Assembly (NCBI GenBank): GCA_004431415.1
Contig: QPMI01000276.1
Location: 1-52,487, forward strand
Length of the DNA stretch: 52,487 bases
Reading direction: 5' to 3'
Origin: Cyanophora paradoxa CCMP329
Taxonomy: Eukaryota; Plantae; Glaucophyta
Shown here: one piece after another, positions 32,670 through 52,487 of the stretch
Layout: each line of letters opens with the position of its first letter
How positions within the stretch are numbered: position 1 is the first letter of the stretch
The notes under the pieces: generated by a model
What the model was told of the DNA's origin: nothing
The model's input: the letters and a program-made list of their open reading frames with translations, nothing else
Database searches by the model: none
Position numbers and translations under genes: made by a program

Positions 32670-35600
32670 ATGCGCGGTGATCATGACCGGGTTAGTCTCA
32701 TCTTATTGCATATGTTCAAATTTTCCCCAGCGCCAGCTGATCAAGGCTGTCACTACCACGTTGGAGAAATTCATGACGCGCTCACGTTATCGATCGTTGC
32801 GCAGCTAAAGCATCGCCGGGTGCAGGGGGCGGCGTGGGCGGTCCTCCTTACTTTTCAGGTCCTTCTCCTCCAGCTTGTTGCGGGCCAGCTGCAGTCCCCT
32901 CCCTTCGCGGTCTCGCCCGTGGATGTGCGCGCCCGCACTGCCGTCCTCTCCTTCAGCTTTGCGGCGGGGCTCTCGCCGGCGAGCGTGCAGGCGCGCTGCG
33001 GCCTCGCGTCGGAGGTATCGCCGCTGTGGACCGCGTCCTCCCACGTGCCCTATGGCGCCTCTGCCGTCAATCTCACCGCCTCGGGCCTGTACGCTGGCGC
33101 AAAGCACGCCTGCCGCGCCTCCGTGGTGGCCGCCGCCCCGACGAACGCGACGCGTGTCGTCTTCACGACGCTCGTGGACCCACCCGCGCCTTCCGTCGCG
33201 CTCTCCTACGAGCGCCTTAACCAAACGCACGCGGACGCGGCGTGGCACATGGCCGGCCAGTTTGCATATAACGCATCCGATAGCCTTATCTTTGGTCCGT
33301 ATTCGCACACCATCCTTTAGGCGCGCATGGTGGCACATGTACAATCGCAAGTAATCCGCGGCGGGTTCTCGCGCAGTGGGCGGCCCGGCGGCCCCGGGGC
33401 TCGCGTGGTCGTTCGATCCTTTTGTTCTTGCCTGGACCAACGCGAGCGACATCTCCACCAGCAACTGCGACTTTTTTGTGGGGGACGCTGCCGGCGGACT
33501 CCACCCAGGCGCCCTCTTTACTGGCTTCGGGGGCGCCCGCTTCTTCGTCGCGCGGACGGGCTCCTCGTTCTCAGCGCCCGACCCCGCCGACCCGCTGCTC
33601 ACCGCCTCGTACCCCATGAACTCCTGCTACTGGGAGTGGAACGGCGCGCAGAGCTGCTTTGACGTGAACTCCGTTGGGACGGCCCCAGAACGCATCTTTC
33701 GCGCTCGGAGGTCGACGGTCGACGTGTTGTGGAACGGCACCGTGCGCGAAAAACAACTCTCCTGTGACGATTTCTACGCCTCTTTCAAGCGTCCCGCCTC
33801 GCGCAGTTTTACTCCGCTGGCGGTAGGGTGTGCACCGATGCGACCTCCGGGATGTTCAACCTCACCGCCTCCGTCATGTGAGCCCTTCGCGGTTGCTTGC
33901 AATTGGTTTTCATTTTTGACCGTCGCGTGCTTTAAATTTCTTGATCGTGCGCCCCTCGCGTCCTTTTAGCTCGTACACGCCGGGTACCCCCGGCCAGGTG
34001 GGCGCGTGGGCCGTGGTGATCCCCCACGAGACCGTCATGGACGGAATGCACTCCGATCCTACCGAGAACGCCGTCGGCGCTGTCTTCGGTGCCTTCCCGC
34101 GAAGAGTGTTAGGGCACTGCTTGCGCCTCCCCTAACTCGCAGCGTCCACCGGGCGCCGGCAGACGGGAAGCTGTTCTACTACGGCGGCGCGATGGCGAAC
34201 GGAACCGCCTCCGCCGCGCTTTATTACGCCAACCTTGTCTCCGCAAGCCCTTCCTGGGTCGCTGTGTTTCACGTATGCCGCTTTAATTTGCCACTTGCCG
34301 GCGCTCTGCCGACCGTCGGACCCGACCGCAGAACGGAGGAAGTCGACTGTCAGCCGGGGCATGGGTCTGCGGACCGCTCTTCGTAATTGTCGGCGGGCGC
34401 GACTACGGGCTCGCGCCGCCATACGAGGCGCCCGCCATTTTCGCGGACCTGGCACCTTTCGACGAGGCAGCGCCTTCCCTCAGCTTCTCCGCAGCGGGAG
34501 CCACCGTGCAGGCCGGCGTCAGTTTAATGTCCGACATCATGCAGTCCTCTGTGGCCCAGGCCTCCGCATCCGGCTCCTGCGGTGCGCGCAGCGCTCGAAG
34601 CAATGTTCGCCGGCATCGCTTCGAATTCTGCATGCACTGATGTCTATGCATCTGCATCGGCGGCAGCCGCGTATCTCATCGGGTTCAAGACGGCGGGCGG
34701 GGACTTTGTCCAGGACGTCCTCCGCGCCTGTAAGCGATAGCTGAATCTGTTTCAGCCTCTTCGAATTCACGATCGCGCGCAATGACATCGATGTCGCGCA
34801 GACGCGAATCGGGACGCGGAGGGAAGGGGCCTCCACGTCGGAGCGCCGGATGCGCCCGCGGCTGTGGAGGTCACGGCCGTTGGGGCCGACTACATGCGGC
34901 GCAACGCGACGTTTGGCGTCACGTTCGGCCCGCAAAACGGGCACTGGGTCTCGGCCGCCGTCGTATCCTGCTCGTGCACGCCGGCGTGCACGGCGGAGAA
35001 GCGGGGGAGCTTCTACGTCCCGCCGGGCTCCACGTACGCCAACGTGACGCTGGCGGCCCTGGACGCCGGCCTCGCGTACGACTGCGCCGTGCACCTGGAG
35101 AGCTTTGCCGGCGCGTCGAACGCGACGGCGGCGGCGCAGTTCTCCATCGCGCAGGACCGGCCCGACAGGCCGATCGCGGCAGCCCCCACCGACCTGGTCG
35201 GGATGACACACGCGACGGTCAACGTCACCATGAGCCCCGACGGTGGCGCGGCCATCACCGGAATCATCGTAAGCTGCGCCGCAGCCGCGGGGGGCGGGGA
35301 TGCGTGGGGCGGATCGGCCACCGGCTCCTTCGCGGCCGGGAGCTGGTACTCGTTCATGGTGACGGGTCTGACCGTAAACACGACATACACGTGCACGGCG
35401 AACGCGACCAACTCCGTTGGCATTTCCGACAACGCGATCGTCTCATTCACAACGAGATGTCCGCGCTATCGCCTCCATAAATATGAACCTGCCTCGCGAT
35501 CTGTGACTGTTTCGCAGCGCTAATTCGGCTGACGACGAGGCGACTGGGCGCCACCGGCTTTGTGGTGCGGCGGGCGGCCAGCGTGGTCTTCAGGGATGCC

Positions 35601-37574
35601 GCGGGCAGCCTCAAGGTCGTCTCGTCGGGCGGCTGGACCGGGCCGCTGTCGATCCCGCTCCCGGCCCCTCCGACGACTCTGCCGTCCGCCGCGGACGCCA
35701 GCGCGCACGTCTCCGACCAAGTCTGGACGTACGACGTCGCGTCCGATAGCTGGACCAAGATGAACGTCACCCAGCCGTACAAGAGCATCGGGTCGGCCTG
35801 CGTCTGGGACGAATACCAGCAGATCTACTGCACAGGTGTGCATCCGCAGTCGATGTTTACACTCAACCCTAGATCCACATGCATATTGTAATTATATTAT
35901 TATTCTTCGCTTGGAAATCCGTATCGACGTCGACTCTACGGATACTTTGCGTTGGCGTCACCGGGGCACATGAATTCGTTCGTCTGATGTCCGCATAGGG
36001 GGATGGAGCAACGTTGGGGGAGAACGAGATGGTCTCTGGTCCTACGATGTATCATTTACAACGACCACTGTTTTGCCTAAGATGCCGAACGGATTTACAG
36101 GTGCTGAGTATTGCTATTTCGAATTCAGACGAACTCCACTCAATTTTCAAATATGCATGCAGGGCACGTAATGGCTTTTTATAATGGGCTCATTTACGTG
36201 CGCTTTCCCACACGCTATTCCTTCTGGGTGCACGAGCGCTCGGCTTGTGATCGAACACATCCAGGTCACTGGAGGGATGCACACCTCGGGCACTGGTGGC
36301 GCTCTGGTGAAGTGCGCATGCGCCTCCCTCACGCCTCGAGCTCGCCTGCAGCCGAGAAGCAGTTCTAACAGCTTCAAATTCTCGATGGCCGCCCAGGTAC
36401 GACCCCGCGTTCGGCTGGAGCAGGGACCTCTCGGGTCCCGTGACCCCCGGCGTGGTGCTCACGAACCACTACGCATACACCCGCGTCGGGTCGCGCCTCT
36501 TCGTCGCGTGGGGCGTCTACCACCGCAACGCCACCATCCACTCGCTGGATCTTGCTCTCCCCGCGCCCAAAACATGGAGGCAGGTCGCCAACTTCTACCC
36601 GTCAATACAAAAGGCGTACGGAGAATCGTACGGCGCCGCGCTCGGCACCTGCGGACAGTACCTCCTCGTCGCCGCTACGGGGCTGCGGCCGATGTTGCTG
36701 GATTCTCAAAGTGCGCTCTTTCGATTAGCCTCTTTGTTTCCCATATGGACCCACCTGGGCGAATTTTTAAAAATCGTCTAGCTGGAGCGATTGTTGCGGA
36801 CGGGGCAAGCGCAACCAATGACGGCGACCAACTCGATTACAAGGATGGTCCGCTCTCTTCTCGCTTTATTCACATACACGCGTTAAATGCCGAAACAAAA
36901 CGCTAATATACAGGGATTTACGGGACGGTGACGGACGGGTCTGCGTGTACATTGTGCGTCGCGGTTTTGAAATTCAAAGCTGCAATTGCAACTTCGCGCG
37001 CAAATTAAAATTGAATCCTTTAAATATAGACCGATGTGTCAGTAGCACGCTAAACGGTTCTTGTCGTTCCTGGCAGATTCGTAGGCCTTGGAACCGATCA
37101 AGCAAACTCCAGCATCAACTTGTCTATGTACAAGATCAACGGTCTGCCCAATCGTCATTGGTATCGCAAATGCATCGTTCAATCTCGTTCTCACGAATAC
37201 ACTGCTTGTTTGGATGATCAGGAACGTTTCCGGCGAGCGGGGCGCCCTCCGTGACGGAGATCCGCGTCGCGAATACGACGCAGTCTTCAACAACGCTGCT
37301 AGTCCGCTTCGGGTTTGCAGGCGACGCGGCCGTCACGGAGGCGGCGGCCTCCTGCGCCCTGTACAACGCCACCACCGGGTCCGGAGAGGTAGTCTGGACC
37401 GGGCGAATGGCGGTTCTCAGCGACCAGGGCTATGCGCGCTTCGAAGTGGCTGGTCTTGCCTCGGACAGCACCTACATGTGCAGGTGACGGGCACGCTGCG
37501 CGGGGCGGGTCAGCACACTCTCTAACGAGAGATCAGTGCAAATGCGACTAGCCCATTGGGAGATTCCGGCAATG
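32670..37574 (+). pseudogene. Secreted/surface kelch-repeat + fibronectin type III protein, interrupted by the viral insertion
   Basis: Signal-like AVLLTFQVLLLQLVAG; FN3 motifs VTGLTVNTTYTCTANATNSVG and VAGLASDSTYMCSANATSPLGDSGN; kelch motifs KLFYYGG, VWTYDVASDSWT, GHVMAFYNGLIYVTGG. The last FN3 exon runs straight into AT-rich viral DNA. Confidence 0.7.
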
Positions 37575-37862
37575 TCACACATAGTAAAATGCGGAGTTTT
37601 AACCCTCGGCTTAATCTTAATTGATTTTGTTGATATATATCGTATATTCTATTTCAATCAATCGATAATCTGTGTATATCTTATCGAATATTCATTTATT
37701 TCGATTATTTTGTATTCTTTTCGATATTTTATCGTAAATTTCTCTTATTTTCCGATTAGTCTTACTGAGTTAATCGATAATCTGTATATATTTCCGAATA
37801 ATATAACTGAATCTCAATTAGATCTTGCCTCTGGTTAAAACTCCGCATTTTACTATGTGTGA
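37575..37862. repeat. Perfect 30-bp inverted repeat at the element terminus
   Basis: tcacacatagtaaaatgcggagttttaacc (37575-37604) and ggttaaaactccgcattttactatgtgtga (37833-37862). Confidence 0.95.
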
Positions 37863-38113
37863 TTGGTCTTTTTGTTAATTGATTTAATCGATATTATATT
37901 CATGTACTTTCTCGATTAAATTTAATTAAATTTAATTCATTTAATCGGAAATATATCGCTTAACTCGATTAAGATCCATAAATGATTCATTTGTTTAATA
38001 AAACAAATAGATCTCTTATTGAATTCAATCGTAATTATACATGAAACTTATATGATTTTATCATTGTTTTATTGAGTCTAAGGGGGGACCCTTAGGATTT
38101 TTGAAATAATTGG

Positions 38114-38433
38114 GTGTCACAGGTGTCACAGGTCCATCCCAAACTTTTGAAAATTCATTCTTTATAGGAGAAACTTTGGGATAAACCTGTGACACCTGTG
38201 ACACATACCATATTTAGTAAGGATCTCTTTTATAATGAAAAACTCAGTAATAATCTTATCTATGTATTTCTAATTAAATGAATAAATGATTTAATCGAGT
38301 GTCACGGGTGTCACAGGTCCATCCCAAACTTTTGAAAATTCACTCTTTATAGGAGAAACTTTGGGATAAACCTGTGACACCTGTGACACATACCATATTC
38401 AGTAAGGACCTCTTATATTGTGAAAATCTCAGT
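38114..38433. repeat. Two ~135-bp direct repeats (period 185), each with a 91-bp TGTCACAGG iteron palindrome
   Basis: gtgtcacaggtgtcacaggtccatcccaaa...tttgggataaacctgtgacacctgtgacac at 38114-38204 and 38299-38389. Confidence 0.95.
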
Positions 38434-38823
38434 GTTAGTTGGTGTAGTTGATTCAAAAAATGCATTTTATACTCTGATTCATTGTTATTTCCTGTGAAAT
38501 TTGAGTCAACTCAACCCACTTAGTCAACCCTTGCATTGAATTCGTAACAAAATCCATATACTATTACTACTTTTACGATTAATATGAGTCAACCTTGAGT
38601 CCACTTTAATATAAATATTATATAATAGGGGAATCAAGGGGAGATGCTTATAAACATATGAATTATTGAGCCTATGATACTTACATCGTCAGGCAGGCCT
38701 CGTTAAGAGGATTCCGAATCTGTTTTTGGTTTTGTCACATGATGAGTTGGTGAAGAGATACATGCATTTTAGTGTTTTGTATGTGGTTTAATGATATGAT
38801 GTCATAATGCATGGGTTTTCGTC

Positions 38824-38922
38824 AACAGTTAAATGAACAGTTAAGTGGACACCGTTTCACGATAAACGAGTAGACACTGCCTACTCCCAACAGGTGTCCA
38901 CTTAACTGTTCACTTAATTGTT
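38824..38922. repeat. 30-bp inverted repeat built from AACAGTTAA units
   Basis: aacagttaaatgaacagttaagtggacacc / ggtgtccacttaactgttcacttaattgtt (2 mismatches); partial extra arm at ~39011-39034. Confidence 0.85.
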
Positions 38923-39401
38923 CGCAATTTGCTTCATTGTCTTTCAATAGCTTTCCCGCATATCTTGTTTTCAATTGTTGTTGCAGTACACTATTACAAT
39001 AGTTGTCTCGTTAACTGTTCACTTATCTGTTCGCTGCGGAAAAAAGACGATGACGGACGTGTTATGTTACGAAATGATGTCATAATGACGATGCATATGT
39101 ATATGATATATATGACACACCATCGAACTCGGGAGATCATGACGATCACGGCGATATATATATGTTATGTGTTTATGATACATCATTATTACATCATTAT
39201 GATGCATCATTCCGAAATCTCGAAAAATCGATAATCGGCATCTTCAAACGCTTGTATCTCATCACCAGATTATCAAATCGCAACGTTCTGCATATCGCTG
39301 TGAAGCGCTTGAAAAGATCTACAAGACAATGTGTATATCATATGCATATATGTATATCAGTCATACATATATTTGGAAAAAACGAGTTTTCGGCTAGCAA
39401 A

Positions 39402-40785
39402 CTAGCTAGTTTTGGTCCTCTCTCTTAGTGTTCTTTGAGGTTTAGGGGCTGTATATGACTCCTTAGTAGTCTGAAAGTCACTATACCATCTCTGGCTATT
39501 CACTTCTGAAAGTTTCTGTGTGCCTGCTATGGTGAGCTTTTTGAGTTCCCTATTAACTTTCCCAGCCTTCTCCTTCCTAGCCTCTATCAAAGGCTTATCT
39601 GGGACTTCATTAGCAGCTTCTATGCCTTCTCTCCTTATAGCAGCATCAACCCTAGCTTCCTCTTTAGCTTGCTCTAAGGCATCTACTGTAGGGTTTCCAG
39701 ATACTCAACTGCATTCACAGGCAACAGCTCATGGAAAGCAAACCTGTTATCTATGATCTCTCCAGTGGGACTCTTTAGCTTAAACTTAAAGCCTTCCCTA
39801 CTATCAACAGTGTAAACCATCCTAGACCAATTGTTACCCTGTTTAGCAAAGGGTTCTTCTCTACTTTCACTCTAACAAACATGCCAGGCTGCATGGTATC
39901 AAGATAAGCTATTGATTTCTTGAATCTTTCATCTTCTAATCCTACTATATACCTATAATGCTCCTCTGTAGTTTCACCTGGCTTCATCTTAGTAGCTGAG
40001 TGAACTGTATTATTGTAATTAAACTCAATATCACCCAACACATCAAAGAATCTAGCTGTGTTATTAGCTATGCAGTAGTTTGTGATCAATCTCTTAATCT
40101 GCTTGTTAAAGGCTTCAATTCGACCTTGGCTCCTATGGTCTGCAGTTCCACTCACTTGGTGTTCTATGTATTTACTAGATAAATACTCCTGGAATATTCG
40201 ATTTTGGAATTCACTCCCAGCATCTGATTGAACCTTTACTATGGGTCTTGCTACTCTCATCTCAAGCTGTTTAAATGCAGCTAATGTAGTGAGAGCTGAT
40301 TTATCCCTTATAGGTATGATATATCCAGTTCTCAGTGTTGATTCCATTGCAGTCATAAATGTATCATAGCCATTGTTTTGTTTCTTATAAGCTGGGAAAA
40401 AGAGCAAATCAATCACATAGGTATCAAGGGGTTGCCTTATTGGAACCATGGGATCTCTCTTTCTAGATATAGCAGGTGCATTGATCTGAACTACCTCTTG
40501 CTTTTTATAGAACTCTTGCAACTGCTTGTAGGATTCATCTGGTAACTCAGCCCTCATAGCTTGAAGCCCTTTGTAACCAGTTCTCACATCATAGAATCTC
40601 TTGGCAATCTTGCTAGTTTCTTTCACTGCAATAGCAACTGGGATCTCTACTGGGACAAGCTCTTTCATTTCAGACTTTTTAACAATTCGAGATTCCCCTT
40701 TTTCCTCCTTTGGAACTGTGATAGGCAGTAGGTTACCTTGCAGTTGCTCAGTGGTTCTCCTAACTATTCTTCCAGTTGCTGGCAT
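39402..40785 (-). CDS. Retroviral-like (rve, DDE) c-integrase of Polinton type; two homopolymer frameshifts in the C-terminal part
   Basis: YVIDL (D), VQSDAGSEF (D), RIEAFNKQIK (E), YNNTVHSATKMKP; after the frameshift NPFAKQGNNWSRMVYTV. Confidence 0.93.
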
Positions 40786-40788
40786 CTC

Positions 40789-43700
40789 TTAATTAAAAGG
40801 AACAGAATTAATACCATCTGGTAAGATGTATCTCTTTGCATCAAAGCAGTTTAGGGCAACCCTTCTACTCACGGTATCTATTATTGTGTGATCTGCCCTT
40901 CTCTTCTGCTTTGCAGTCACAGTCTTGCTGATACCTGCAAATAAACACTGCTTAAAATCATTAAATTGGAGTTCCTCAGTGGAAGTCCCAGAGAGCTTAC
41001 TCCTCTCAATCTCAGCAGTTCTGAAACTGTAAACTTTTGCTCTCAGACCTACATACTCCAATATTGCAGAGCCAGGCATTTCATTTTTGTATTTACCTGG
41101 GGTCATTCTGTTAGATCCCCTAGGTCCAAGGCATAAGATATATTCTCTATATCTTTTTGTAAGGTCTTAGATTCAATATATAGACAGAAGGAGTCAGTAT
41201 CATGGAATAGTAACTTTGCTTTTGTCCATTGGGACCTTACAGTATCATAGAAGAACTGGTAATTATGCAGTTTGGCTGCATCCAAAACATAAGCCCCAAT
41301 TGCAACAGGCTTATCTAGTTTCACATGCTTTGTGTAAAACTCAAAGGCAACTGCTTTTTCGTTTATGGGACTTGTTGATTTCACCAATGGGAAGCTGCAT
41401 ATTTCATAAACAGTTTCTCACTGTTTGCAATCTTAACCACAGATCTACCTCTGCAAGATTCAATGCATTTCCCATAGATTGAGTTATTCATGAGTTTATA
41501 GAAATCAGCCTCGAATTTATTCACTGCTTTCCTTCTCATCTCAGTATTCAGCTCAATGTAGGGTTTCATTACAGGAGCCACAGTAAATGAGAGGACCCTG
41601 TGAATTTTCTTTAATTTCACACCTTTGTCCAACAGATATTGCAGAAGAGGCTCAGAAATCACATAGTTTGCCACAGAACCAAAGGTTGCAGTTAGCTTAG
41701 GGGTCTTATCAAGCTCTTCTCCTGAAAGATCCAACAGGCTCTTTTGATATTGTGATAATTCCGCATATTCTACTATTTTCTTGTTAATAATTAGGGGAAA
41801 TCACTGTGGTCTAGATATAGCCTTATTGGGTATTCCAGATCAACTTCCAGGAAACTGGATCTGTTATCTTGTGGGTTGAATTCGGTCTCCCATCTAAAAT
41901 CACCAACTGGAATTGGCTGACTCAAACAGTAGCCATACAAGTTGTTAGCATCAAACAGCATAATGTGGGAGTTCTCACCATCAGCCTCAGCATACCTACA
42001 AGGCATTGTTGCAAAGCCACCCCTGATTCCCCTCTCAACAAATTCGTATTGCTCTACATCACTTATAAGCTCTATTTTTGCCTCGGTGGTCCTAAGCATA
42101 GCATCCCAAGATAACCCAGGTGCAGATACATAATGAACTGGGTCAAGTCCATATACTGAGTGTGAAAGCCTTCTGAAGGCTTGGAATTTGTTCATTAACT
42201 CATCTACATCAGCAGCTCCAAAATCCATGAAATTGCTTGCATCAATGAACTTGTAAAGACCCCATTGCAATGAAAGGTATTGATCAAAGTTTTTCGAAAG
42301 GATTTCGATTCGCTTTTTATCACCCATGCCTGCTATTTTTCTGAAAATGAATGTCCCACAGTCATCCATTTGGTCAACAACTACTGCAACTTTGGTTTGC
42401 TTTGAGATTCTCCTATGGAGATTGCAGTTTCTGCATGCAGGAGCAATATAATGACCTGTGTGGTGATCATGATCCCTGCATTTGAAGTTCTCCTTAGTGA
42501 ACCTCTCACTGCAAAGGTAACAGTGTTTGGTAGCTCTGTAAATTGCTTTCTGCTCATCTGTGAGTTCATTCATAGGAATGTTGGTAAACAGGAAATCGAT
42601 TAGTTCTCTTGCTTTGGACTCCAAGCATTCAAAGAGACCTCCCATTGGATCCTGACCCTCAAATCGAAACTCCTGAACATCTGCCCCAGTGACTACTCTC
42701 AGGTTGACTGCTGAGACTTCTCTCTTGGATTTTGATGCATCAATGGGGATGCTTCTATGTTCAATCTTGCAGTATACCACAACAGGAAGCCACACAGTTT
42801 TCCTGAGGTTTTTCAGTCCAAACTCTATGGTGGTCTCAGGCTTAGGAGTGATTCCCTTTGAGAGTCTCCAATCAATGCATCTGTTTGAGTCCACATGAGC
42901 AGTGAGTTTAGCCTCAGACCTGAATCGAGATAAGCATGTGTCACAGTAGTGTAACTTTTGATCCTTGGTTTTATCAAGGGCAACTCTGAGAAGTCTTGAA
43001 AGGGACATGATTGTAATATAGTGACCATTCCCTTCATCATCATGAATGAGCATCAGATTAATCTTTTGCTTTCTGCCTGGGTTGCTGGATTGATGTAGGG
43101 GATATATAACATCTCGATCCATTCCAAATATGTTTATGCTGATGCCTGCATTTTGAGATTCGAATTTATCAATGATTTCAGCATCACAGGGAACAGGGAA
43201 TGGGATGTTATCGAAATTGAGAGCCAGAGGATTGTATGTAGTTGGTGAGTATTTCCATTTGCGATATTGTGTTAGCTCACTTCTCTTGTGGGAATTCACA
43301 TCTTTCCTATGGATCCATGCCAAAACTGCATTTTCGAAGCAAGAATCATCAATATTTCGAATATTCACTGTGGCTCTCTTGGCTGCAATTGAATCAGGTG
43401 TTTTAACATAGCAACCACCAGTTGGGGCATAACTCATAATAGCAACTCTGAGCATTTCGATTCTCTCCAATCGATAGCTATCAACAACATTCATCTGCTC
43501 CTGACACATTTGGGCTGCTTTATTCAGCTCAGTTCGAATATTTCTCGATTTGGTTAATACAAAATAATCGCTGTAAATGTATTTCGATATCCAAACCTGT
43601 GGATTGCTGACTTTTACGAACTTGCAGATAAACGATAAGCGAACTTTGATTGCCCTGAATTGATCTAGACTGTCTCTTAAACGTTTTGGTAGAGAGGTTG

Positions 43701-44030
43701 CAATTCTATCTAAATATTCAATCACATCAACAACAACTTCCCTTCTGGCTCTGTAAGTGAGCCAGCGATATAATTCATTCATTGCTGTACCATCTTCTGC
43801 CTCTGGTTCTATTTGCCTCAGGCGATCGAGTTCATCAAGAGTTTCAACTTTATCATAGAGGTTATTGGCTTTTCTGGTTAATTTCGCTAAAGTGGGTCTG
43901 CCCCTTGAAATAAATCCGATTTCCGGTCATATTCAGCCTCTGTAATTTCATGGGCTGCATACAGTGTTCCCAGTAATCCCATGAGTTCCCATTTCTTCTC
44001 TCTAATGAGTCTGTTGCTAATTCGGGGCAT
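40789..44030 (-). CDS. Protein-primed family B DNA polymerase (pPolB) with C2H2 finger and EndoVII-like insert; split by four -1 frameshifts
   Basis: Motif A MLFDANNLYG, motif B YKLMNNSIYGK, motif C FHDTDS; also YGLDPVHYVSAPGLSWDAML, ERGIRGG, GKYKNE, EYVGLRAKVYS, DAKRYILPDGINSVPF. Joins ORFs 41791-43782, 41381-41734, 41103-41387 and 40789-41106; probable ATG at 44030. Confidence 0.93.
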
Positions 44031-44087
44031 AGTTCCTAACTTGTTCCTACTAAAAGGGGAGGTTTTAAATGGGGATATTCCGAACGC

Positions 44088-44138
44088 AAAAATTTGATGA
44101 AAACTACTTAAAGAAATATCTTCTATATATATAAAAGG
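44088..44138 (+). promoter_or_regulatory. Putative early promoter box
   Basis: AAAAATTTGA followed by aaaactacttaaagaaatatcttctatatatataaaagg just before ATG 44142; near-identical copy at 45427-45465. Confidence 0.65.
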
Positions 44139-44141
44139 ACA

Positions 44142-44960
44142 ATGGCAGAGAACAAAGCAACATCTTCTCTGGAACGCTTGAAGGCTACATTAATGTTTCT
44201 TTGTGGATCTAATAACTTTAAAGACTTTGTCGCTTTGGGGAGAAGCAAATATATGAACTCTTTGTATTTGAAACTTGCAAAGTATGATTTGACTCACGAA
44301 AGCCTTCCTCCACACTCAAACAGCTGTGCTTGCAAGCATCATATTGAAGAACAATGCTACATCTTGCATGTGGATAAAAAGATTGTGGTTCTTGTTGGCA
44401 ACTGCTGCATTAAACGATTTATGCCAAATGGTGCAAGGAGGGAAGATATATGCAAGAAATGCGGAGATCGACATAAAAACCGTAAGGATAATTTCTGCAA
44501 TAAGTGCAGGATTATCATAAAGGAGGAGGAATTGGAAAGAAAAAAGCAAATCCAGAAAGAAGCAGAGGAGCGAAAGAAACAACTTGAATTAGAAGAAAGA
44601 GAGCGAAGGCAGAGAGAATTAGAACAAGAAAGAGCAAGGAATAGACATGCAGTTAATCTTTTCCTGATTTGGTGCAACCAGTTCATTCCAAAAATGGATA
44701 ATCTTCGCAGAGATGATATAGAGAGGTTCAGAGAGGGTAGATCTGCATTGATTGAAATGTATGCAGAACTCAGTACAACAAACACATTGGTTGCTGGGTT
44801 TCAGGTGCCTTTTCTTAAAAAAGATATCGCAAAAGGATTAGATTGCAGATGGAATAAGGACAAGAAAACATGGGAGACCTTGGAAATCGAACCATTTGTA
44901 GCATTGCTAGGTAAGCATTTCAAACTTATGTATATTGAGAGATTTGGACAGAGAGGTTAA
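44142..44960 (+). CDS. Cys/His-rich Zn-binding protein with coiled coil and C-terminal DUF5710-like domain
   Basis: CACKHHIEEQCYI..VGNCCIKRF, CKKC..CNKC, E/K/R coiled coil, FQVPFLKKDIAKGLDCRWNKDKKTW. Confidence 0.75.
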   Translation: MAENKATSSLERLKATLMFLCGSNNFKDFVALGRSKYMNSLYLKLAKYDLTHESLPPHSNSCACKHHIEEQCYILHVDKKIVVLVGNCCIKRFMPNGARREDICKKCGDRHKNRKDNFCNKCRIIIKEEELERKKQIQKEAEERKKQLELEERERRQRELEQERARNRHAVNLFLIWCNQFIPKMDNLRRDDIERFREGRSALIEMYAELSTTNTLVAGFQVPFLKKDIAKGLDCRWNKDKKTWETLEIEPFVALLGKHFKLMYIERFGQRG

Positions 44961-45016
44961 AGAACAAAAAATGATTTAAAGAATTCTCTATATATATTAA
45001 GAGAGACAGAGGAAAA

Positions 45017-45271
45017 ATGCCACTCAGTGAAGCCCAGAAGAGAGCTATGAAGAGGTACCAGCAAACTGAAAAAGGTAAGGCTCAAATCAAAAAGTTTAAC
45101 GAAAAAATAGCCACACAGCTAAGAGATCTATATCAAACCGATGATACCTATAGAGCCATGAAAATAGCAAGTTCATGTCAGCGAAAGTATGCAGCCAATG
45201 CAGTCTGCTTTGTCAAATATTTGTATGATGTCCCTTACTCAAACAGAGGGAGAAAATCGAAACATGTCTAA
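45017..45271 (+). CDS. Small basic protein, possibly DNA-binding
   Basis: MPLSEAQKRAMKRYQQTEKGK...; has its own AAAAAATGATTTAAAG..TATATATA upstream box. Confidence 0.7.
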   Translation: MPLSEAQKRAMKRYQQTEKGKAQIKKFNEKIATQLRDLYQTDDTYRAMKIASSCQRKYAANAVCFVKYLYDVPYSNRGRKSKHV

Positions 45272-45406
45272 ATTATTTTCCCAGCATATTACTAGGCTGG
45301 GGATATGCTGTTTATTCGCTGAAATACCAATTCATCCTTTTTGTATCTGAACCACTCGATATATCATGTGGATAAATTTCGTAGGGATACTTTCTCGATT
45401 TCCAAC

Positions 45407-45476
45407 AAAAAATGATTGGGGGACCCAAAACTACTTAAAGAAAAATCTTCTATATATATAAAAGGGACCCCCAATC
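45407..45476 (+). promoter_or_regulatory. Putative early promoter of the primase-helicase
   Basis: AAAAAATGA plus the 39-bp box (45427-45465, 1 mismatch to 44100-44138), flanked by a 13-bp inverted repeat. Confidence 0.65.
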
Positions 45477-45483
45477 GCTGAAA

Positions 45484-47808
45484 ATGAACGCCAAACAGAC
45501 CAAGTTAATCAAATCGCTCGCTAACTGGCTTCGTTCTGATGAGGAACTCGCCAAAAACATGATTATCCCAGTGAAACCTGACAGCAAAGACCCAGTTTTC
45601 AAGCATAAGGGAGGTGCTTGGTCCTGGGAAAAGTATGAGGAAGCGCTGGCAACTAATCAGTATGTATCTTGGGGCATTCTGCTCTCAGACAACATGATGG
45701 TTATTGACTTTGATGATGAGGAGAACTTTGAGAAATTCCGGGATATGTTTCCTGATGACTTTGATGCCAATCAGCCCATGGCAAAAACTAAAAAAGGCTA
45801 TCATGTCTACTTTAAACGACCTGAGGAGTTCACTAAACTCAAAATCACCGATAAGGCTCCAGGCTTTAAAGGCTTTGAAAAGGTTGACCTGAAAACAATC
45901 ACTGGAACTGGAACTTCTGGATTAATTAATGTTTGTCCCAGTGTCAACAAGACCTGGGTAATTGCTCCATGGGATGATACCTGTGATTTCAATGAGCCTA
46001 CTGATGAGTTTAAAAAGTGGATTGCAGAGAACTATATCTATAAGAGTGAGTATACTGCTAATGCTACCTCACATGATGCATTGGAAAAGAGTATTCTTAA
46101 AGAGCTGGTGGATATGGGCTTTATGCATCCCAATATAATCTCTCAAACTGAACTGGGCTTTAACTTTGATGCTGCTAATAAGGGACTTAATTGCCCATGC
46201 TGCAATGGGTCCCATGAATCGAATAACTGGTATGTTATGACAGCCAAAGGAGAAGATAAAAAGTATATTGTGTCCAGCTACAGTGGCAATTGCAAAAAAC
46301 GATTTATCTTCATTGGAATGCAATCTGATATCTTCAATCTCATTGATAAGTCCGCTGGTTCTGGAGGCGCTCATTATGATGTCAGTCTTGTGTGCAAAGA
46401 GGTACTACAACATACTTGGAGATACTCCAAAAAGTCATGGTTCAAACTCAATACTGATACTGGGATTTGGGAGCATGATGACACAAACCAAAAGATTTAC
46501 CTAGACATAAGTTGCCTTGTTGTCCCTCAATACCTTGGCAGGGCTGTGCATTATAGCCAAAGAGCTTTGAAGGATGAAGAGAATAGAACAGCTTTCGAAG
46601 AGAAATCGAAAACATTAATTTCTATTGCCAAAAATCTTAAACAATCAGGATATCGCAAATCCCTTCTGACTGATCTGCTCCCTCTGCTGAATGATGATGA
46701 ATTCTATGAAAAGATTGATACAGTTCCATATGTAATTGGATTCGATAATGGTGTATTTGATCTGACAACTATGACTTTCAGAAAGGGGAAACTGGAAGAT
46801 ATGGTGAGCAAGAGTGTGGGTTATGATTATACTGAGAATGTAGACCCAAGAAAGTAGACCATCTCAATCAGATTTATAGAGAGATTGTAGATGATCCAGC
46901 AGAGCGAAACTACCTTCTGGCATCTATTGCAATTGCCCTCAGTGGATCAACAAAATCACAGAAGTTCTACATGTGGACTGGTGCTGGGGCAAATGGTAAA
47001 TCACTTGTTCAGGAATACTGCAAACAGATTTCAGGGCTTATTATAGCCCTCTCGAAATATCCTATTGGACCAAACCTAAAAGAACTCATCAGATGCTACT
47101 CCTGAACTTGCCAAACTCCTTGGAAAGCGACTTGTATTCAGTAATGAGGCTGAAGATGGTGATAAACTGCAGATCTCCAAAATTAAGGAGGTCACAGGTG
47201 GAAATGAAATGACTGTGAGAGCCTTGTTCAAAGACCCAGTAATCCTCACTCCAATGTTCCAGGTTTACATTACAACTAATGACAATTTGACTATAAATAA
47301 ACCAGACTTTGCAATTCAAAGAAGACTTTCATACCAGAGATTCAATAATATATTCAGAGAGAAGCCTGAAGCTGGTCAGAAGAAAGCTGACCCAACACTG
47401 TTCACACTTCTACACAATGATGATGAGTATAAGATGGCTCACATGAAGATATTACTGGATATGTGGAAGAACAAAGAGGTTGAAGAGATCTTAAGAAATC
47501 CCCCTCAATCGATTATTGAACAGGGAATAAACTTTATAGCTGAAAATGATAAGATTGGTGAATGGCTTAGGGATAATTTCGAAGTTACCCATAATGCAAA
47601 CGACTTTGTTTCGAGTGATATCATTTACAAATCATACAGAAGTGTCGATGATAAAGTTGAATGTGTTTCTGTGATGAAGAGAGTAAGGGAAATCTTCAAT
47701 GTGAAATCAGAGGTTAAACGAATTCAGGGAACCAGAGCAAGGGGCTACATTGGACTTCGAAAGATAACAAGGGTTCAAGAAGACAATGGAGAGGATGTTG
47801 AATATTAA
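45484..47808 (+). CDS. PrimPol (AEP) - Zn finger - D5-like SF3 helicase - C-terminal winged helix; three -1 frameshifts
   Basis: IIPVKPDSKDP, MVIDFD, TKKGYHVYF; CPCCNGSHESN; IGFDNGVFDL; Walker A GAGANGKS (46980-47003, outside the ORF track); TPELAKLLGKRLVFSNE, IKEVTGG.EMTVRALF, AIQRRL; wHTH-like DKIGEWL..IYKSY..RARGYIGL. Confidence 0.92.
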
Positions 47809-47868
47809 ACAAAACGATTTATGATTGAAATGTATATGTATTTTTTATAGCCTTACTGGAAATGGTGT

Positions 47869-47960
47869 TGTTCACAGGTGTCACAGGTCCATCCCATCTA
47901 GGGGGCTATAAAAAGAAAAATGACCAGGGGACGATAAAAACCTGTGAACACCTGTGACAC
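47869..47960. repeat. Third iteron palindrome, directly downstream of the helicase (candidate origin)
   Basis: tgttcacaggtgtcacaggtccatccca ... aaaacctgtgaacacctgtgacac; arms conserved, loop diverged. Confidence 0.85.
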
Positions 47961-48028
47961 CTATCGGAAAAGACCAAAATTTGACAAGAATACTTAAGGC
48001 TTACTTGATTGTGTATAGTGAAGACAAA

Positions 48029-48250
48029 ATGGCAAAGACTCTTGATGAGATGACCATGACTGAGTTAGATAAATGCATTAAGCATGGAGATATTGGAGCA
48101 TATATCGAAATGTCACAGAGATTGATAGGTTACAATATGTATGCAGCTAAACCAAAGAGAAATAGATCAGTTAACATTCACATTACTGTTTCAGTGTCTG
48201 AGAATGCAAACAAAAAACAACAAAAGCATATTTACAAAAGTTATCTGTGA
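48029..48250 (+). CDS. Small hypothetical viral protein
   Basis: MAKTLDEMTMTELDKCIKHG...; upstream AAAATTTGA..TACTTAAG motif. Confidence 0.6.
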   Translation: MAKTLDEMTMTELDKCIKHGDIGAYIEMSQRLIGYNMYAAKPKRNRSVNIHITVSVSENANKKQQKHIYKSYL

Positions 48251-48337
48251 CTTGATTGCAAGTATAAAGCCAATTCCTTTGTATATATTTTTATAGCTGC
48301 CTCAGTAGCATACTGAGACCGCTTTTTCTCGATTATC

Positions 48338-48838
48338 TTATAGACCTGGGGGTCCATTGCTACTATCAGTAGGCAAATAATATTTAATCGGTCTCCCTCT
48401 GGGTCTCTGCTCCTCTTTTTGGGCTTTTCTGCGATAATAGGATGCCAGGGCTTGCTGCTTTTTATACTCTCTATATTCTGGGTCCTCTCTATATCGTTTC
48501 TGCTTTGCTAGAATGTGTCTAATAGCACCCTCAGTTAAAGGCTCATCACTGGTAAACTCGATCAAACTAATTGTATCCTCCATTAATATTTGCTGAGAAA
48601 ACGTTTTCGCCTGGCAAAGAACTTCTCCTTGGATACTCCTGTTGCTCATATGTATACTCTGTGGGTCTGCTGGCATTGACTCCACAGAAACTGTTGATCT
48701 CCTTCTCTCTCTTGCTTCTGAGGCATTATCCTCATTATCTGACATCTCAAACTCCACTGTTGTCTCACAACATCCACTGTGGCAATTGCTCACCACATGC
48801 AGACTGAACATCTCGAAGAACTTTCGTATTATGTCCAT
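48338..48838 (-). CDS. Basic viral protein with AT-hook
   Basis: MDIIRKFF..SNCHSGCCE..KQKRYREDPEYREYKKQQALASYYRRK..RPRGRP. Confidence 0.65.
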   Translation of the reverse strand: MDIIRKFFEMFSLHVVSNCHSGCCETTVEFEMSDNEDNASEARERRRSTVSVESMPADPQSIHMSNRSIQGEVLCQAKTFSQQILMEDTISLIEFTSDEPLTEGAIRHILAKQKRYREDPEYREYKKQQALASYYRRKAQKEEQRPRGRPIKYYLPTDSSNGPPGL

Positions 48839-48860
48839 ATCTCTAATAAAACAGAGATAA

Positions 48861-49595
48861 TTAAAGCCAAACTCGTCTTTTATATACTGTTGGGGCAACT
48901 CCCTTTTCTACTTCAGCTTTGGTGGCACCAGGTTCAATGGTTCCCTTTTGGGTCTTTGTTTTCATTTCATCTACTGCCTGCTCATCGATTTGGTTCTCTT
49001 TCTTAGCAATAAACTGTTTATCCGGGACACCAGTGATTCCCATTTTATAAACTTCCTTTCGAAGCATCTCCTTTAGCTTGGCTCTCTCTTTCTTCTCAGT
49101 AACATACTGCTCCAAGGCACTTGATTTGGCTTCCAGGTCTTTGAGTTTAGCAGTCATCTCATCCCATTGAGCCTTGGGAATTCGATGAATATTTTGAGTG
49201 GGAGCAGTCTTGTATGTGACTTCACCAGCCATAGACTGAATAACCTTGTCTGATTCTTTACTTAGACCTTCACCTTTGCGAGCCAGTGATAGATCTTGCA
49301 AGCCTAAACCTTTATCATCAGCAGCACCAATAATTCGCCTGGCTCCCTCAGCAACAGCCTTCATCTTTGAGGCTTCAGGTGAAATGTTGAGTTGGTCACT
49401 GGTTGAAGCCTGTGGGGCTTTGTCATCAAATGATTCCTCATAGGCAGCATTGAGGGGGTCTTCTTGTTGTTGAGAGGGCTTCACTTCATTCATACCATTG
49501 AATTTCAGTGGGTCTGTGTTAATGGATCCATTGTTTCCACCACCTGAATAGCCAACAGCCCCAGCAGGGATCCCTATTTTTCGTTTGGGAGGCAT
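48861..49595 (-). CDS. Hypothetical viral protein (candidate core/virion protein)
   Basis: Intact 244-aa charged ORF starting MPPKRK, immediately downstream of the ATPase in the structural cluster. Confidence 0.7.
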   Translation of the reverse strand: MPPKRKIGIPAGAVGYSGGGNNGSINTDPLKFNGMNEVKPSQQQEDPLNAAYEESFDDKAPQASTSDQLNISPEASKMKAVAEGARRIIGAADDKGLGLQDLSLARKGEGLSKESDKVIQSMAGEVTYKTAPTQNIHRIPKAQWDEMTAKLKDLEAKSSALEQYVTEKKERAKLKEMLRKEVYKMGITGVPDKQFIAKKENQIDEQAVDEMKTKTQKGTIEPGATKAEVEKGVAPTVYKRRVWL

Positions 49596-49623
49596 TGTAT
49601 CTTTATTAGAATGAGAGATAATT

Positions 49624-50406
49624 TTATAAACCGCGTTTATATCGCATCAATTTATTGCTATGGACTTGGCTTTTCACTTCTTTGGGGGCTTCCTCTTTTT
49701 CTGGTGGTTTCAGTTCATCCTCTTTCTTTTTTGGCTTCCTGTGGAAGCGAGGAAATGGGAAATCTTTCACAAGCTCAGCTTTATCTACATAGTATTTAAC
49801 TGAGTAGTTTGCAGAGGACCAAATGATATATTGATAGGAGTGAACATACTCTTCAAACATCTTGTAGAAATCCTCTTTATTTCGCATTATATTGTATTCT
49901 TCCTCTATGGCTTCAAGTTCTTTGCGATTAGCAGCACTGAGAAACATAGCATAGTCAGAATTAACTCGAATAGTCGACGAGACTTTCCTTAGCTTTTGTG
50001 TGATGCAGATAATGGATATTTTCGAATGGCGACCTCTGGAATACAGAGATCCGATTATTTTATCCCTTGTGAGATCGACTATCTCATTATCGATTAAATC
50101 ATCTAAAACTACACATAACTGGTTAACAGGCTCACCCTTTTCTATTTTCTCTTGCCTCTCATCTAGCAATTTAGCAATGTAAGGGGCATCCCATTTTCCC
50201 AGTTGCAGTGTTGCCACTTTATCCCAGAAATGATTGAAGCTGGTTCCACTCACAACTAAAACAACATCAATCTTTTTGGCATCATGTAACTGCTTTAACC
50301 AATACTTTACAGCTTCTGATTTACCAGTGGCTGATTTCCCGATTGCCAATACACGAAATGGTGGTTCTATCATTTCACCAGCATTAAATTCTTCCAGATC
50401 ATTCAT
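49624..50406 (-). CDS. A32-like (FtsK-HerA) DNA packaging ATPase
   Basis: PFRVLAIGKSATGKS (Walker A), CVVLDD (Walker B), SRGRHSKISIICITQ, IRVNSDY. Confidence 0.93.
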   Translation of the reverse strand: MNDLEEFNAGEMIEPPFRVLAIGKSATGKSEAVKYWLKQLHDAKKIDVVLVVSGTSFNHFWDKVATLQLGKWDAPYIAKLLDERQEKIEKGEPVNQLCVVLDDLIDNEIVDLTRDKIIGSLYSRGRHSKISIICITQKLRKVSSTIRVNSDYAMFLSAANRKELEAIEEEYNIMRNKEDFYKMFEEYVHSYQYIIWSSANYSVKYYVDKAELVKDFPFPRFHRKPKKKEDELKPPEKEEAPKEVKSQVHSNKLMRYKRGL

Positions 50407-50471
50407 TGTTGTATATCTTTCTACATAAAGACAGATAAAAATAATGCAGGGAGACTGAAAATCGTAACAAT

Positions 50472-51831
50472 CTACAAATTTATACGACGTAATCCATCTT
50501 TGTCTACAATTATGAACGAATGCATGAGAGCGCGAACATTAACATCGATTACCTTATCTGAAGGCATGTAGAGGGTGAGGAAGGAAGAAGAGGAATTTGT
50601 TAAATCAACATAACCAGACTGGGCAATATTTCGAATTGCCTTTTCTCCATCAAGGCAGAATGGGAGTCCTGAAAGGACATAGCGATCAGCAACCTTGTCC
50701 ATGTTAGAGCATTTGAAGGCATCAGCAATTAGCTCAGCACCTTTGAGTAGGGAAATTGGCTCAGTGGCAAAAAGTCGCTGTCCATTTATTTCAGTTGTGA
50801 ATGTTATGTCTTTGGAGTTGGCATAGGTCTTAAGAACACTGTGGGAGCCATTGGATTTATCAACAGTTGCATTATCACGAACTGAAACAAGCAGAGCATA
50901 TACAAGACCTGAGATTTGAGAGAGGTTAATTCGATTGGGTTGGGCATTGCCCTTGGCAGGGAAAGCACTAGCATCTACAAATCCAATGTCTAGAGCAGGA
51001 ATAGCCATGCCAGTAGTCTTTACTTTTTCAATTACAGTAGCGAAAAGCTCATCAGAAACATTAATAGCATGCATGTAAAGGCGAGGAGAAGTAATAGAAA
51101 TGACAGGGTTGTTGCACCAAGACTGAAAGTTGTGATATTTTGACCAACATGGGCAAGGGTTCCATCTGTAAAGTTTCCAAGACCATCATCAGCAGTTGCA
51201 TCAACAGTTCCAACAGCAGTTGTGAGTTCACGACCACCATAGGAAGTTTCAACATAACCCTTATCAGCATCCTTAAACCAAACAGTAACAACCATTTCAC
51301 CAGATAAAGCACCAAGGGAAGATAGTGATTTAGCCAAGGCACAGGGATTTCAACGAAAAATGAGCCACCAAGTCGGTTGGTTCCATGAGCAGGATACCAT
51401 GAACCATGCCCATTGAGCGTTTCTTTTTAGCTAGTTGATCCTCCGAATAATAGACCAGGGGAAATGAGCAAGGAAATCAGAAGGAATGTGGTAGGTGTAA
51501 GATCCATAGTAATTTCAAGTCGCTGAACTAAAGCACCAACAGGGCGAGTGTATCCATTGCGAACAAGGTCCGTATCACCAGCAAAAGTGATGGCTGGAAG
51601 GTCGAAAGCAAGTTCGAGTTTTCCACAGAAATTGTAGCGAGGTAGCTTGAAGGAATGCGATTTCCTACATTATTCTCAAAAGTATTGCTGGGATTCACAA
51701 CAACTAGAACTGGCTTAGACTTGGATTCGAGACCAAGCATAAGGGAGTTATCCAAGAAAAAGGCTTTCGCCTCCTCTGGGGTTGTTAGGGCTTCTTTCAG
51801 CGAAAGTCTTGAGAGTGGAAGTGATATCCAT
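50472..51831 (-). CDS. Double jelly-roll major capsid protein (frameshifted, ~450 aa)
   Basis: Joined fragments are beta-rich: GALVQRLEI, FFVEIPVPWLNHYLPLGALSGEMVVTVWF, INLSQISGLVYALLVSVR, GYVDLTN. Size and position between penton and ATPase fit. Confidence 0.72.
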
Positions 51832-51871
51832 TATATTCTCTTTTATTATACTGCAACATAAAAATCTACCA

Positions 51872-52487
51872 ATGATCCTTAATTATGCGAAGCTTGTAAT
51901 AACTGGATAGAAGGGTGAAGCTGTGACATTCGCATCTTAAAGTATTCATAAACAGGGTCGCCTGCTGGCTCATCACCATAGCGAATTTCAAGGTCAGATG
52001 AACAGGTTGACCCTCAAATCAATTGGTTCATTAATAGCATTTACAATATCAACCGAGAAAGTGGATAATCCACCTTCTTATTATAGTATTTTAAAGTGGA
52101 TGAGCCTCTGTCGAATTGTAAACTACATGCTCACCATAATCTTTGTCAGGGACCACTATTTTATGGAAGTAACCAGTCAAAGACCATCCCACATTGCACC
52201 AGATCACCCAGCTCCTTTACTCTCACAAACAAAACACTATCTCTGGTCTTTCAGGCTCAAATGAAGATAGAATACCGTTCACTCGAGTCCAGTAAAATAC
52301 CATCAGTGAGAGCATCATAAACTTTGTGATTGGATTGAGGAATTGCCATATCTTCCAGGATCAAGACCAAGCAGTCTACCTGAACTCAATAGCTTTTGAA
52401 TTGTTTGCAGGTTGGATTTACAGCAAGTGAGAAGCCAGGTAAAACTTTTTTCGGAATGGAATACTATTCGTTTTCAGTGACTCATCC
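51872..52487 (-). CDS. Minor capsid (penton) protein, C-terminal part (frameshifted; start outside the window)
   Basis: SVLFVRVKELG..YFHKIVVPDKDYGEHVVY..LSTFSVDIVNAINEPIDLRGQPVHLTL resembles the Polinton/PLV penton C terminus. Confidence 0.68.

Follow-up and report, generated by a model that had tools for sequence, protein, structure and literature searches.

An integrated polinton-like virus of Cyanophora paradoxa with candidate helicase origins at inverted TGTCACA repeats and a predicted loss of polymerase proofreading

We analyzed a stretch of 52,487 nucleotides from the glaucophyte Cyanophora paradoxa CCMP329 (contig QPMI01000276.1 of GenBank assembly GCA_004431415.1; hereafter the window), in which a sequence-only reading had proposed an endogenous polinton-like virus (PLV) from position 37573 to the window end. 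We found that this element is a true insertion in the host genome, that it is multicopy in its host and that it is a real virus of a known kind, which candidate origins and a decayed polymerase exonuclease set apart as a variant. The explanation that we favor is that the window carries one integrated copy of a multicopy PLV, likely replicated by a pPolB for which we predict a loss of proofreading, together with a PrimPol-SF3 helicase that is predicted to act on inverted TGTCACA repeats. The repeat units and the decayed exonuclease had both been overlooked in the sequence-only reading.

The features on which the argument turns are listed here, with strands for genes only:

37484..37572, plus strand: host intron (53 nt, GT-AG, 37484-37536) and the exon that the insertion interrupts, both belonging to a predicted FN3-repeat gene (splicing inferred)
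37573..37862: left terminus, which begins TGTCACA and forms a long self-complementary hairpin (from contig end, arms and fold)
38114..38204: inverted repeat unit 1, with two TGTCACA, a 53-nt spacer of 70% AT and two TGTGACA; likely helicase origin
38299..38389: inverted repeat unit 2, within a 147-nt stretch that duplicates unit 1 with 92% likeness, spacer 68% AT
39405..40785, minus strand: rve (DDE) integrase, its tail continuing via two frame changes near 39850 and 39700 (Pfam, foamy-virus match)
40789..43926, minus strand: pPolB, with frame changes near 41118, 41390 and 41793 (Pfam, homologue P0009)
45484..47808, plus strand: PrimPol-D5-type SF3 helicase, Walker A at 46980, with frame changes near 46850 and 47050-47090 (Pfam, PHROG)
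47870..47960: inverted repeat unit 3, which follows the stop of the helicase gene by about 60 nt and is slightly degenerate, with a spacer of 58% AT
49624..50406, minus strand: A32-like packaging ATPase in one unbroken frame with both Walker motifs, A and B (Pox_A32)
50472..51831, minus strand: major capsid protein (MCP), assigned to the double jelly-roll family through homologue P0001 and its modeled fold, with several frame changes in the 5' half
51879..52487, minus strand: fragmented penton-like gene of unconfirmed identity, which runs off the end of the window (reading frames)

Results

The element is a true insertion present in many copies

Twenty sequencing runs contain the stretch wholly or partly, 19 of them with one organism label; the window may itself derive from one of these runs, which are therefore not all independent. 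Contigs were compared from the DNA-type runs X1, X2 and X3, and X20 (under another organism label) and X23, which contain only short pieces of low depth, were left out. In all three runs, a 6785-nt short-read contig matches positions 32600-37602 without any mismatch at single-copy depth (32.1 in X1, 17.2 in X2 and 116.4 in X3) and terminates at 37602, which is 30 bases (k-1) inside the element. Such a stop indicates that a unique flank meets a repeat beginning at 37573, exactly the start that had been proposed, and since the junction is spanned without mismatch in three runs, the element is a true insertion in eukaryotic DNA and not co-assembled foreign DNA, a possibility that the sequence-only reading had itself raised. 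Among the contigs of these runs, there was no branch at 37572 and no empty-site allele. A joint between 37246 and 37577 in X2 was discarded: one of its sides was 25 bases long, likely a chance match. The insertion appears to fall in a predicted exon of an FN3-repeat gene, as the host reading joined across the putative intron, YMC-S-ANATSPLGDSG, resembles the end of the upstream FN3 repeat YTCTANATNSVGISD, in a region where the fn3 match itself (34786-35520) is weak (E 8e-4). The interrupted host gene (32544-37572) combines FN3 repeats with a weak kelch-like (NANM) match.

On the element side of the junction, the first 290 bases form a hairpin with arms at 37575-37617 and 37820-37862 (fold z -10.6; 0 of 200 shuffles). 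The right end lies beyond the window, which stops inside the penton-like gene. As had been stated from the sequence, the element is far more AT-rich than its host, with a GC content of 38.8% (37573-52487) versus 68.9% (1-37572). The observed/expected CpG ratio is 0.39 in the element versus 1.18 in the host flank, and repeats and viral genes are described as methylated in C. paradoxa in the available text of PMC12344493.

Taken singly, element contigs reach about 25 to 100 times the depth of the flank (39-47 times for X2 contigs at 44.6-46.0 kb, about 100 times for an X2 contig at 41912-42114), values that are inflated by GC bias and that we therefore read as "many copies". Of the 5682 X1 pieces placed on the window, 4523 are at least 95% alike, which supports a recent spread; the insertion had been called recent because of its low GC content, which is the weaker evidence, the low GC being a family trait. 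Some family copies skip 286 bases within 38783-39096, in two or three runs.

The polymerase keeps its synthesis motifs, and its exonuclease looks decayed

Profile scans with Pfam (24 frames) and PHROGs (17 frames) agreed with each other, and Pfam placed rve, DNA_pol_B_2, Endonuclease_7, Prim-Pol, D5_N, DUF5906 and Pox_A32 where expected, the rve, DNA_pol_B_2 and Endonuclease_7 matches falling below the Pfam curated cut-offs. From the full gene set that had been claimed, the integrase, pPolB, PrimPol-SF3 helicase, A32 ATPase and MCP thus stand on Pfam, PHROG or fold evidence; the penton is unconfirmed, and the window ends before a full set can be demonstrated. The integrase matches rve with E 8.6e-5 and a foamy-virus integrase with E 8e-9, with the D-D-E residues aligned. 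The pPolB matches DNA_pol_B_2 (E 9e-6) and carries an Endonuclease_7 zinc-finger insert in the same frame (42522-42421); its predicted vOTU Cys (43350) and His (43026) are present, as are polymerase motifs A (41952), B (41497) and C (41204), and the gene may in fact start with a 47-aa frame from 44030.

The single homologue found for pPolB, P0009 (1145 aa, 21% identity), aligns across the piece. At what we take to be the ExoI position, P0009 reads FDTE and the window CKIE, so that an Asp is replaced by Lys, and between the presumed ExoII and ExoIII motifs about 90 residues are absent, 83 window residues spanning 177 residues of P0009. The short form is carried without gap by overlapping high-depth contigs of X3 (42148-42264) and X2 (42236-42351), so that the reduction is a family trait rather than damage to this copy. 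From this alignment, we consider the exonuclease to be decayed and predict that proofreading is dead. A single-sequence model of the N-terminal part of pPolB (pLDDT 32) was not used. In mavirus and PLVs, exonuclease loss accompanies helicase gain, and a compensation by the helicase has been proposed (Krupovic et al. 2024, in the portion available); the element looks like a separate, partial case of the same association. The available portion of PMC13215967, which covers mavirus-related truncated pPolB forms, does not mention this host, and we did not find the exonuclease decay of this pPolB in print.

Inverted TGTCACA repeats are tied to SF3 helicase genes

The helicase gene matches Prim-Pol, D5_N (E 4e-11) and DUF5906, with PHROG 1156 as its best PHROG (E 3e-33); among PDB sequences, it gave weak matches to African swine fever virus C962R only. 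The inverted repeat pattern that accompanies it was matched 5 times, when 0.01 matches were expected by chance, and units 1 and 2 retain the layout seen in phages and the 53-nt spacing. In viral contigs, the exact pattern gave 5 loci and a looser pattern 17 loci on 15 contigs, compared with 0 loci for a permuted control pattern. Six of these 17 loci have an SF3 helicase gene no more than 100 nt away (the motif is downstream of the gene in four and upstream in two), two are second copies on helicase-bearing contigs, as in the Cyanophora element, and nine show no SF3 gene, as judged from profile scans of 16 of the 23 nearby frames and from tblastn on all 17 loci. In metagenomes, a D5-type helicase gene ends 4-8 nt before the motif at 7 of 18 loci, and the three such helicases that were scanned all have PHROG 1156 as best match, as does the window helicase. 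The inverted motif thus abuts an SF3 helicase gene at 13 of 35 phage and metagenome loci: it is tied to SF3 helicases, though not exclusively. One of the motif clusters in which no SF3 helicase was detected nearby carries an open reading frame (ORF) of 199-211 aa, with no assigned function, that ends 22 nt from the motif.

Since the same motif adjoins SF3 helicase genes elsewhere, the TGTCACA units are likely helicase origins, and we treat them as candidates. The C-terminus of the window helicase aligns with those of five motif-linked helicases, with R201, R214, R221 and G225 invariant. At the origins of staphylococcal pathogenicity islands (SaPIs), the winged helix of an SF3 helicase is reported, in the available text of bioRxiv 2026.10.17.759575, to bind opposed iterons downstream of the rep gene. 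Among the literature matches listed, we found no description of the TGTCACA motif, nor of iterons in virophages or polintons.

Most frameshifts look like consensus errors

The pPolB, helicase, capsid and penton-like genes and the integrase tail are broken over several frames, and the ATPase frame is intact. The indels that were read (12 of 68 rows in one contig comparison, 4 of 4 in the pPolB comparison) are all single bases missing from the window; they account for each of the three breaks in pPolB and for several of those in the capsid gene, and the base that is missing is identical to the next one at 14 of 15 distinct sites. Long-read artefacts of this kind are described for these elements in the consulted part of Bellas 2023 (PMC10120064). 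The checked frameshifts are thus likely one-base-short runs left by long-read consensus errors and, if assembly errors explain most frameshifts in the window, intact copies probably exist in the family; the contigs being pooled, some breaks may still be private to this copy.

The capsid belongs to a catalogued Cyanophora family with a modeled double jelly-roll fold

The C-terminal capsid piece is 63% identical to P0001, a 456-aa protein of Cyanophora paradoxa according to its source, and the window pieces, in three frames, span its residues 3-456. A search of 1.84 billion representatives returned 6 matches, five of them real (P0001 and four distant relatives), none named to a group; the sixth, P0003, was a false match to a repeat protein and was dropped from the capsid alignments. 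The distant relatives (P0004, P0005, P0006 and P0008, about 25%) come from ENA metagenome contigs of up to 11.9 kb. The capsid sequence had no match in Pfam and, like the ATPase, none in the PDB sequence search; IMG/VR held no relatives of the capsid, the capsid alignment, the ATPase or the helicase, and the JGI metagenomes no match to the capsid alignment.

An AlphaFold model of P0001 built on a six-row alignment (mean pLDDT 57, pTM 0.61) recovered the double jelly-roll that the sequence-only reading had expected of the capsid. In Foldseek against PDB, the top 10 matches were PBCV-1 and iridovirus capsid proteins (best PBCV-1 Vp54, E 3.8e-15), and a viral structure library agreed. With VIA, whose list shows no polinton capsid and so does not speak against a polinton type, the 15 best rows were all double jelly-roll proteins; the best was PBCV-1 (Z 21.1, rmsd 4.6, 311 aligned), and mavirus MCP scored Z 11.8 (rmsd 5.7, 328 aligned), for a model of modest confidence. 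Through this 63%-identical homologue, the modeled fold assigns the capsid family of the window to the double jelly-roll type.

This virus family is already catalogued and not new. Bellas 2023 (PMC10120064, Tables S2 and S4, as far as available) lists 366 C. paradoxa capsid genes in two unnamed clusters (272 and 94), under "Iterative HMM searches" and outside the named groups and the Maverick columns, in agreement with the earlier statement that the capsid could not be placed in a named group. In the same source, gene_47449 (= P0001) and gene_64235 (465 aa) are called MCP by HHpred; by eye, gene_64235 resembles the window capsid pieces so closely that it is a near-twin. Within the portions available, Starrett 2021 noted adintovirus-like proteins in Cyanophora, a cryptophyte paper (PMC12220804) mentions a Cyanophora PLV, and a 2026 framework preprint does not name Cyanophora.

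For the neighboring packaging ATPase, the Pox_A32 match (E 3.2e-11) lies above the Pfam cut-off. The eight penton-like pieces (22-45 aa) gave 0 relevant Pfam matches; their likeness to penton C-termini is presumed, and their identity is unconfirmed. No protease family matched any ORF scanned in the window, the right part of the element lying outside it, and the earlier remark that no adenain-type protease is visible there is borne out.

Other features of the element and of the host flank

44142..44960, plus strand: 272-aa ORF with a Cys/His-rich N-terminus, a coiled coil and a weak DUF5710 match (reading frame, Pfam)
45017..45271, plus strand: 84-aa basic ORF of no family (reading frame, Pfam and PHROG scans)
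48029..49598: short ORFs at 48029-48250 (plus), 48241-48907 (minus, two frames) and 48861-49598 (minus), with no meaningful family match

Upstream of all three plus-strand genes (44100-44138, 44979-45000 and 45427-45465) lies a shared box with TCTATATATAT, which occurs nowhere else in the element and of which two copies are 97% alike over 39 nt; it is likely a common promoter. The left non-coding region contains a second palindrome family, unrelated to the TGTCACA units (38824-38922 and 38997-39034; 30-nt arms, 93% complementary). In the host flank, a region that reads like a histidine kinase gene contains an 84-nt inverted repeat (13322-13511), 92% complementary, with 22 nt between its arms.

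Discussion

The gene set, the host junction, the high depth and the repeats, together with the link of such repeats to SF3 helicase genes elsewhere, are observations, from which we infer the following course of events. The retrovirus-type integrase likely inserts a linear genome, and the host copies would be kept silent by CpG methylation, a latent virus being most likely. On activation, the helicase-primase would open the repeat units, pPolB would copy the DNA and the ATPase would package it into a double jelly-roll capsid. By analogy with the Rep proteins of staphylococcal islands and their iterons, the C-terminal domain of the helicase may bind the heptamers, then melt the AT-rich spacer and prime, and the units near the left end might let it open the terminus region. 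The helicase may also compensate for the lost exonuclease, as proposed for mavirus. More tentatively, this could be a lineage midway in a swap of replication systems, in which a polinton pPolB is losing proofreading independently of mavirus, beside a PrimPol-SF3 helicase of phage type whose bacterial iteron origin was retained without a change of letter and was copied by the helicase into the virus terminus.

Several points weigh against the explanation that we favor. Depth is not a copy number and does not separate integrated from free copies, and in three runs the summed contig depth over the helicase region (43871-47848) is about one third of that over the pPolB and capsid regions, so that many copies may lack the helicase cassette or have something else in its place. 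Concerning the origins, the control consisted of one permuted pattern only, and 22 of the 35 motif loci have no adjoining SF3 helicase gene (two are second copies, and some contigs end nearby); two whole low-GC clusters (L008, L012, L013, L014 and L020; L025-L027, L030 and L031) show none nearby, and the helicase-linked metagenome loci fall in 2 of 6 clusters only. As for the exonuclease, no single contig bridges the full 42205-42258 with 31 bases on each side, the comparison uses one distant homologue and presumed motif names, and Asp may be preserved where ExoII and ExoIII are placed. Finally, the indel reading extends over just those 12 of the 68 rows of the main contig comparison, and the modeled fold belongs to P0001 rather than to the window's own protein.

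The strongest alternative, which we nevertheless consider unlikely, is a mosaic, in which a linear unit of pPolB and integrase, with the repeat units as its ends (38114-47960), became joined to a capsid module, or in which the helicase and its origin are a passenger replicon copying independently of pPolB. Units 1-2 and unit 3 indeed enclose precisely the genes for replication and integration, and 38362-38407 matches 47851-47896 over 46 nt in inverted orientation; repeat-bracketed replicases, including one in a Cyanophora element, appear in the available text of bioRxiv 2026.10.13.758929, and the lower depth over 44-48 kb is a weak hint of variation among copies. However, the true junction at 37573 lies outside the bracket, the inverted match is merely the palindromic unit itself, and the pPolB and capsid regions are similar in depth. 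Moreover, the motif is found in phages as lone units adjoining helicase genes, which fits an origin better than a terminus.

An ordinary PLV that uses protein priming alone is a still less probable explanation; the repeats would then be integrase, packaging or promoter signals, or non-working relics of a phage-derived helicase. The terminus itself starting with the TGTCACA heptamer, the degenerate unit 3 and the intact polymerase motifs and predicted vOTU Cys/His of pPolB would all suit it, but in units 1 and 2 the layout found in phages and the 53-nt spacing are preserved, and in unrelated contigs the motif goes along with SF3 helicase genes. That the element is a dead, decayed copy or foreign DNA is very improbable: the many frameshifts, some of which could be unique to this copy in pooled contigs, and an element that reaches the window end would speak for it, but the observed breaks are one-base-short runs of the kind described in the consulted part of PMC10120064, and the unbranched junction contig of three runs already refutes co-assembly.

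In the literature that we consulted on PLVs with AEP-SF3 replicases, we found no description of how their replication starts. If the more tentative reading of a swap of replication systems is true, an internal origin would be defined here for the first time in a PLV. A 90-bp candidate origin with its helicase makes a simple system for binding and replication tests. The decayed exonuclease, if true, would add another, independent instance of the exonuclease-for-helicase trade proposed in the available text of Krupovic et al. 2024. The host, a glaucophyte with hundreds of such insertions, can be cultured, so that reactivation can be tried.

Comparison with known systems

The element resembles Mavericks/Polintons (Polintoviricetes) by its pPolB with a predicted vOTU, its rve integrase, its A32 ATPase and its double jelly-roll capsid, the latter as modeled. 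It differs from them by an additional PrimPol-SF3 helicase, by the apparent decay of its exonuclease, by the lack of a protease in the window and by a capsid without sequence-level match to named groups. For the Cyanophora clusters of Bellas 2023 (PMC10120064), the available parts of the source describe no replication module, exonuclease decay or origins.

Endogenous mavirus-like elements are also low-GC insertions in a GC-rich protist. With mavirus and these relatives, the element shares pPolB, rve, a separate SF3 helicase gene and exonuclease loss; unlike mavirus, it keeps part of the exonuclease, with an endonuclease VII insert, its helicase is fused to PrimPol, and its capsid, as modeled through P0001, is nearer to PBCV-1 than to mavirus by the Z scores given above.

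Multi-replicase polisuviruses, as presented in the available text of bioRxiv 2026.10.13.758929, combine pPolB-DDE with an AEP replicase and have internal repeats that bracket the replication genes, with one Cyanophora example; there, the bracketing repeats are read as mobility boundaries and not as origins. The closest likeness in layout is that of the SaPI PriRep5/Rep origin (bioRxiv 2026.10.17.759575, in the text available), where opposed short repeats also surround an AT-rich spacer beside an SF3 primase-helicase gene. These origins differ in sequence and measure about 300 bp, with 5-6 repeats on each side, whereas the units of the element measure about 90 bp, with two repeats on each side, and belong to a eukaryotic virus that has extra copies near its terminus. 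At the phage D5/VapE helicase loci (L015-L022 and L028-L039) and at the metagenome loci, by contrast, the heptamer is identical to that of the element.

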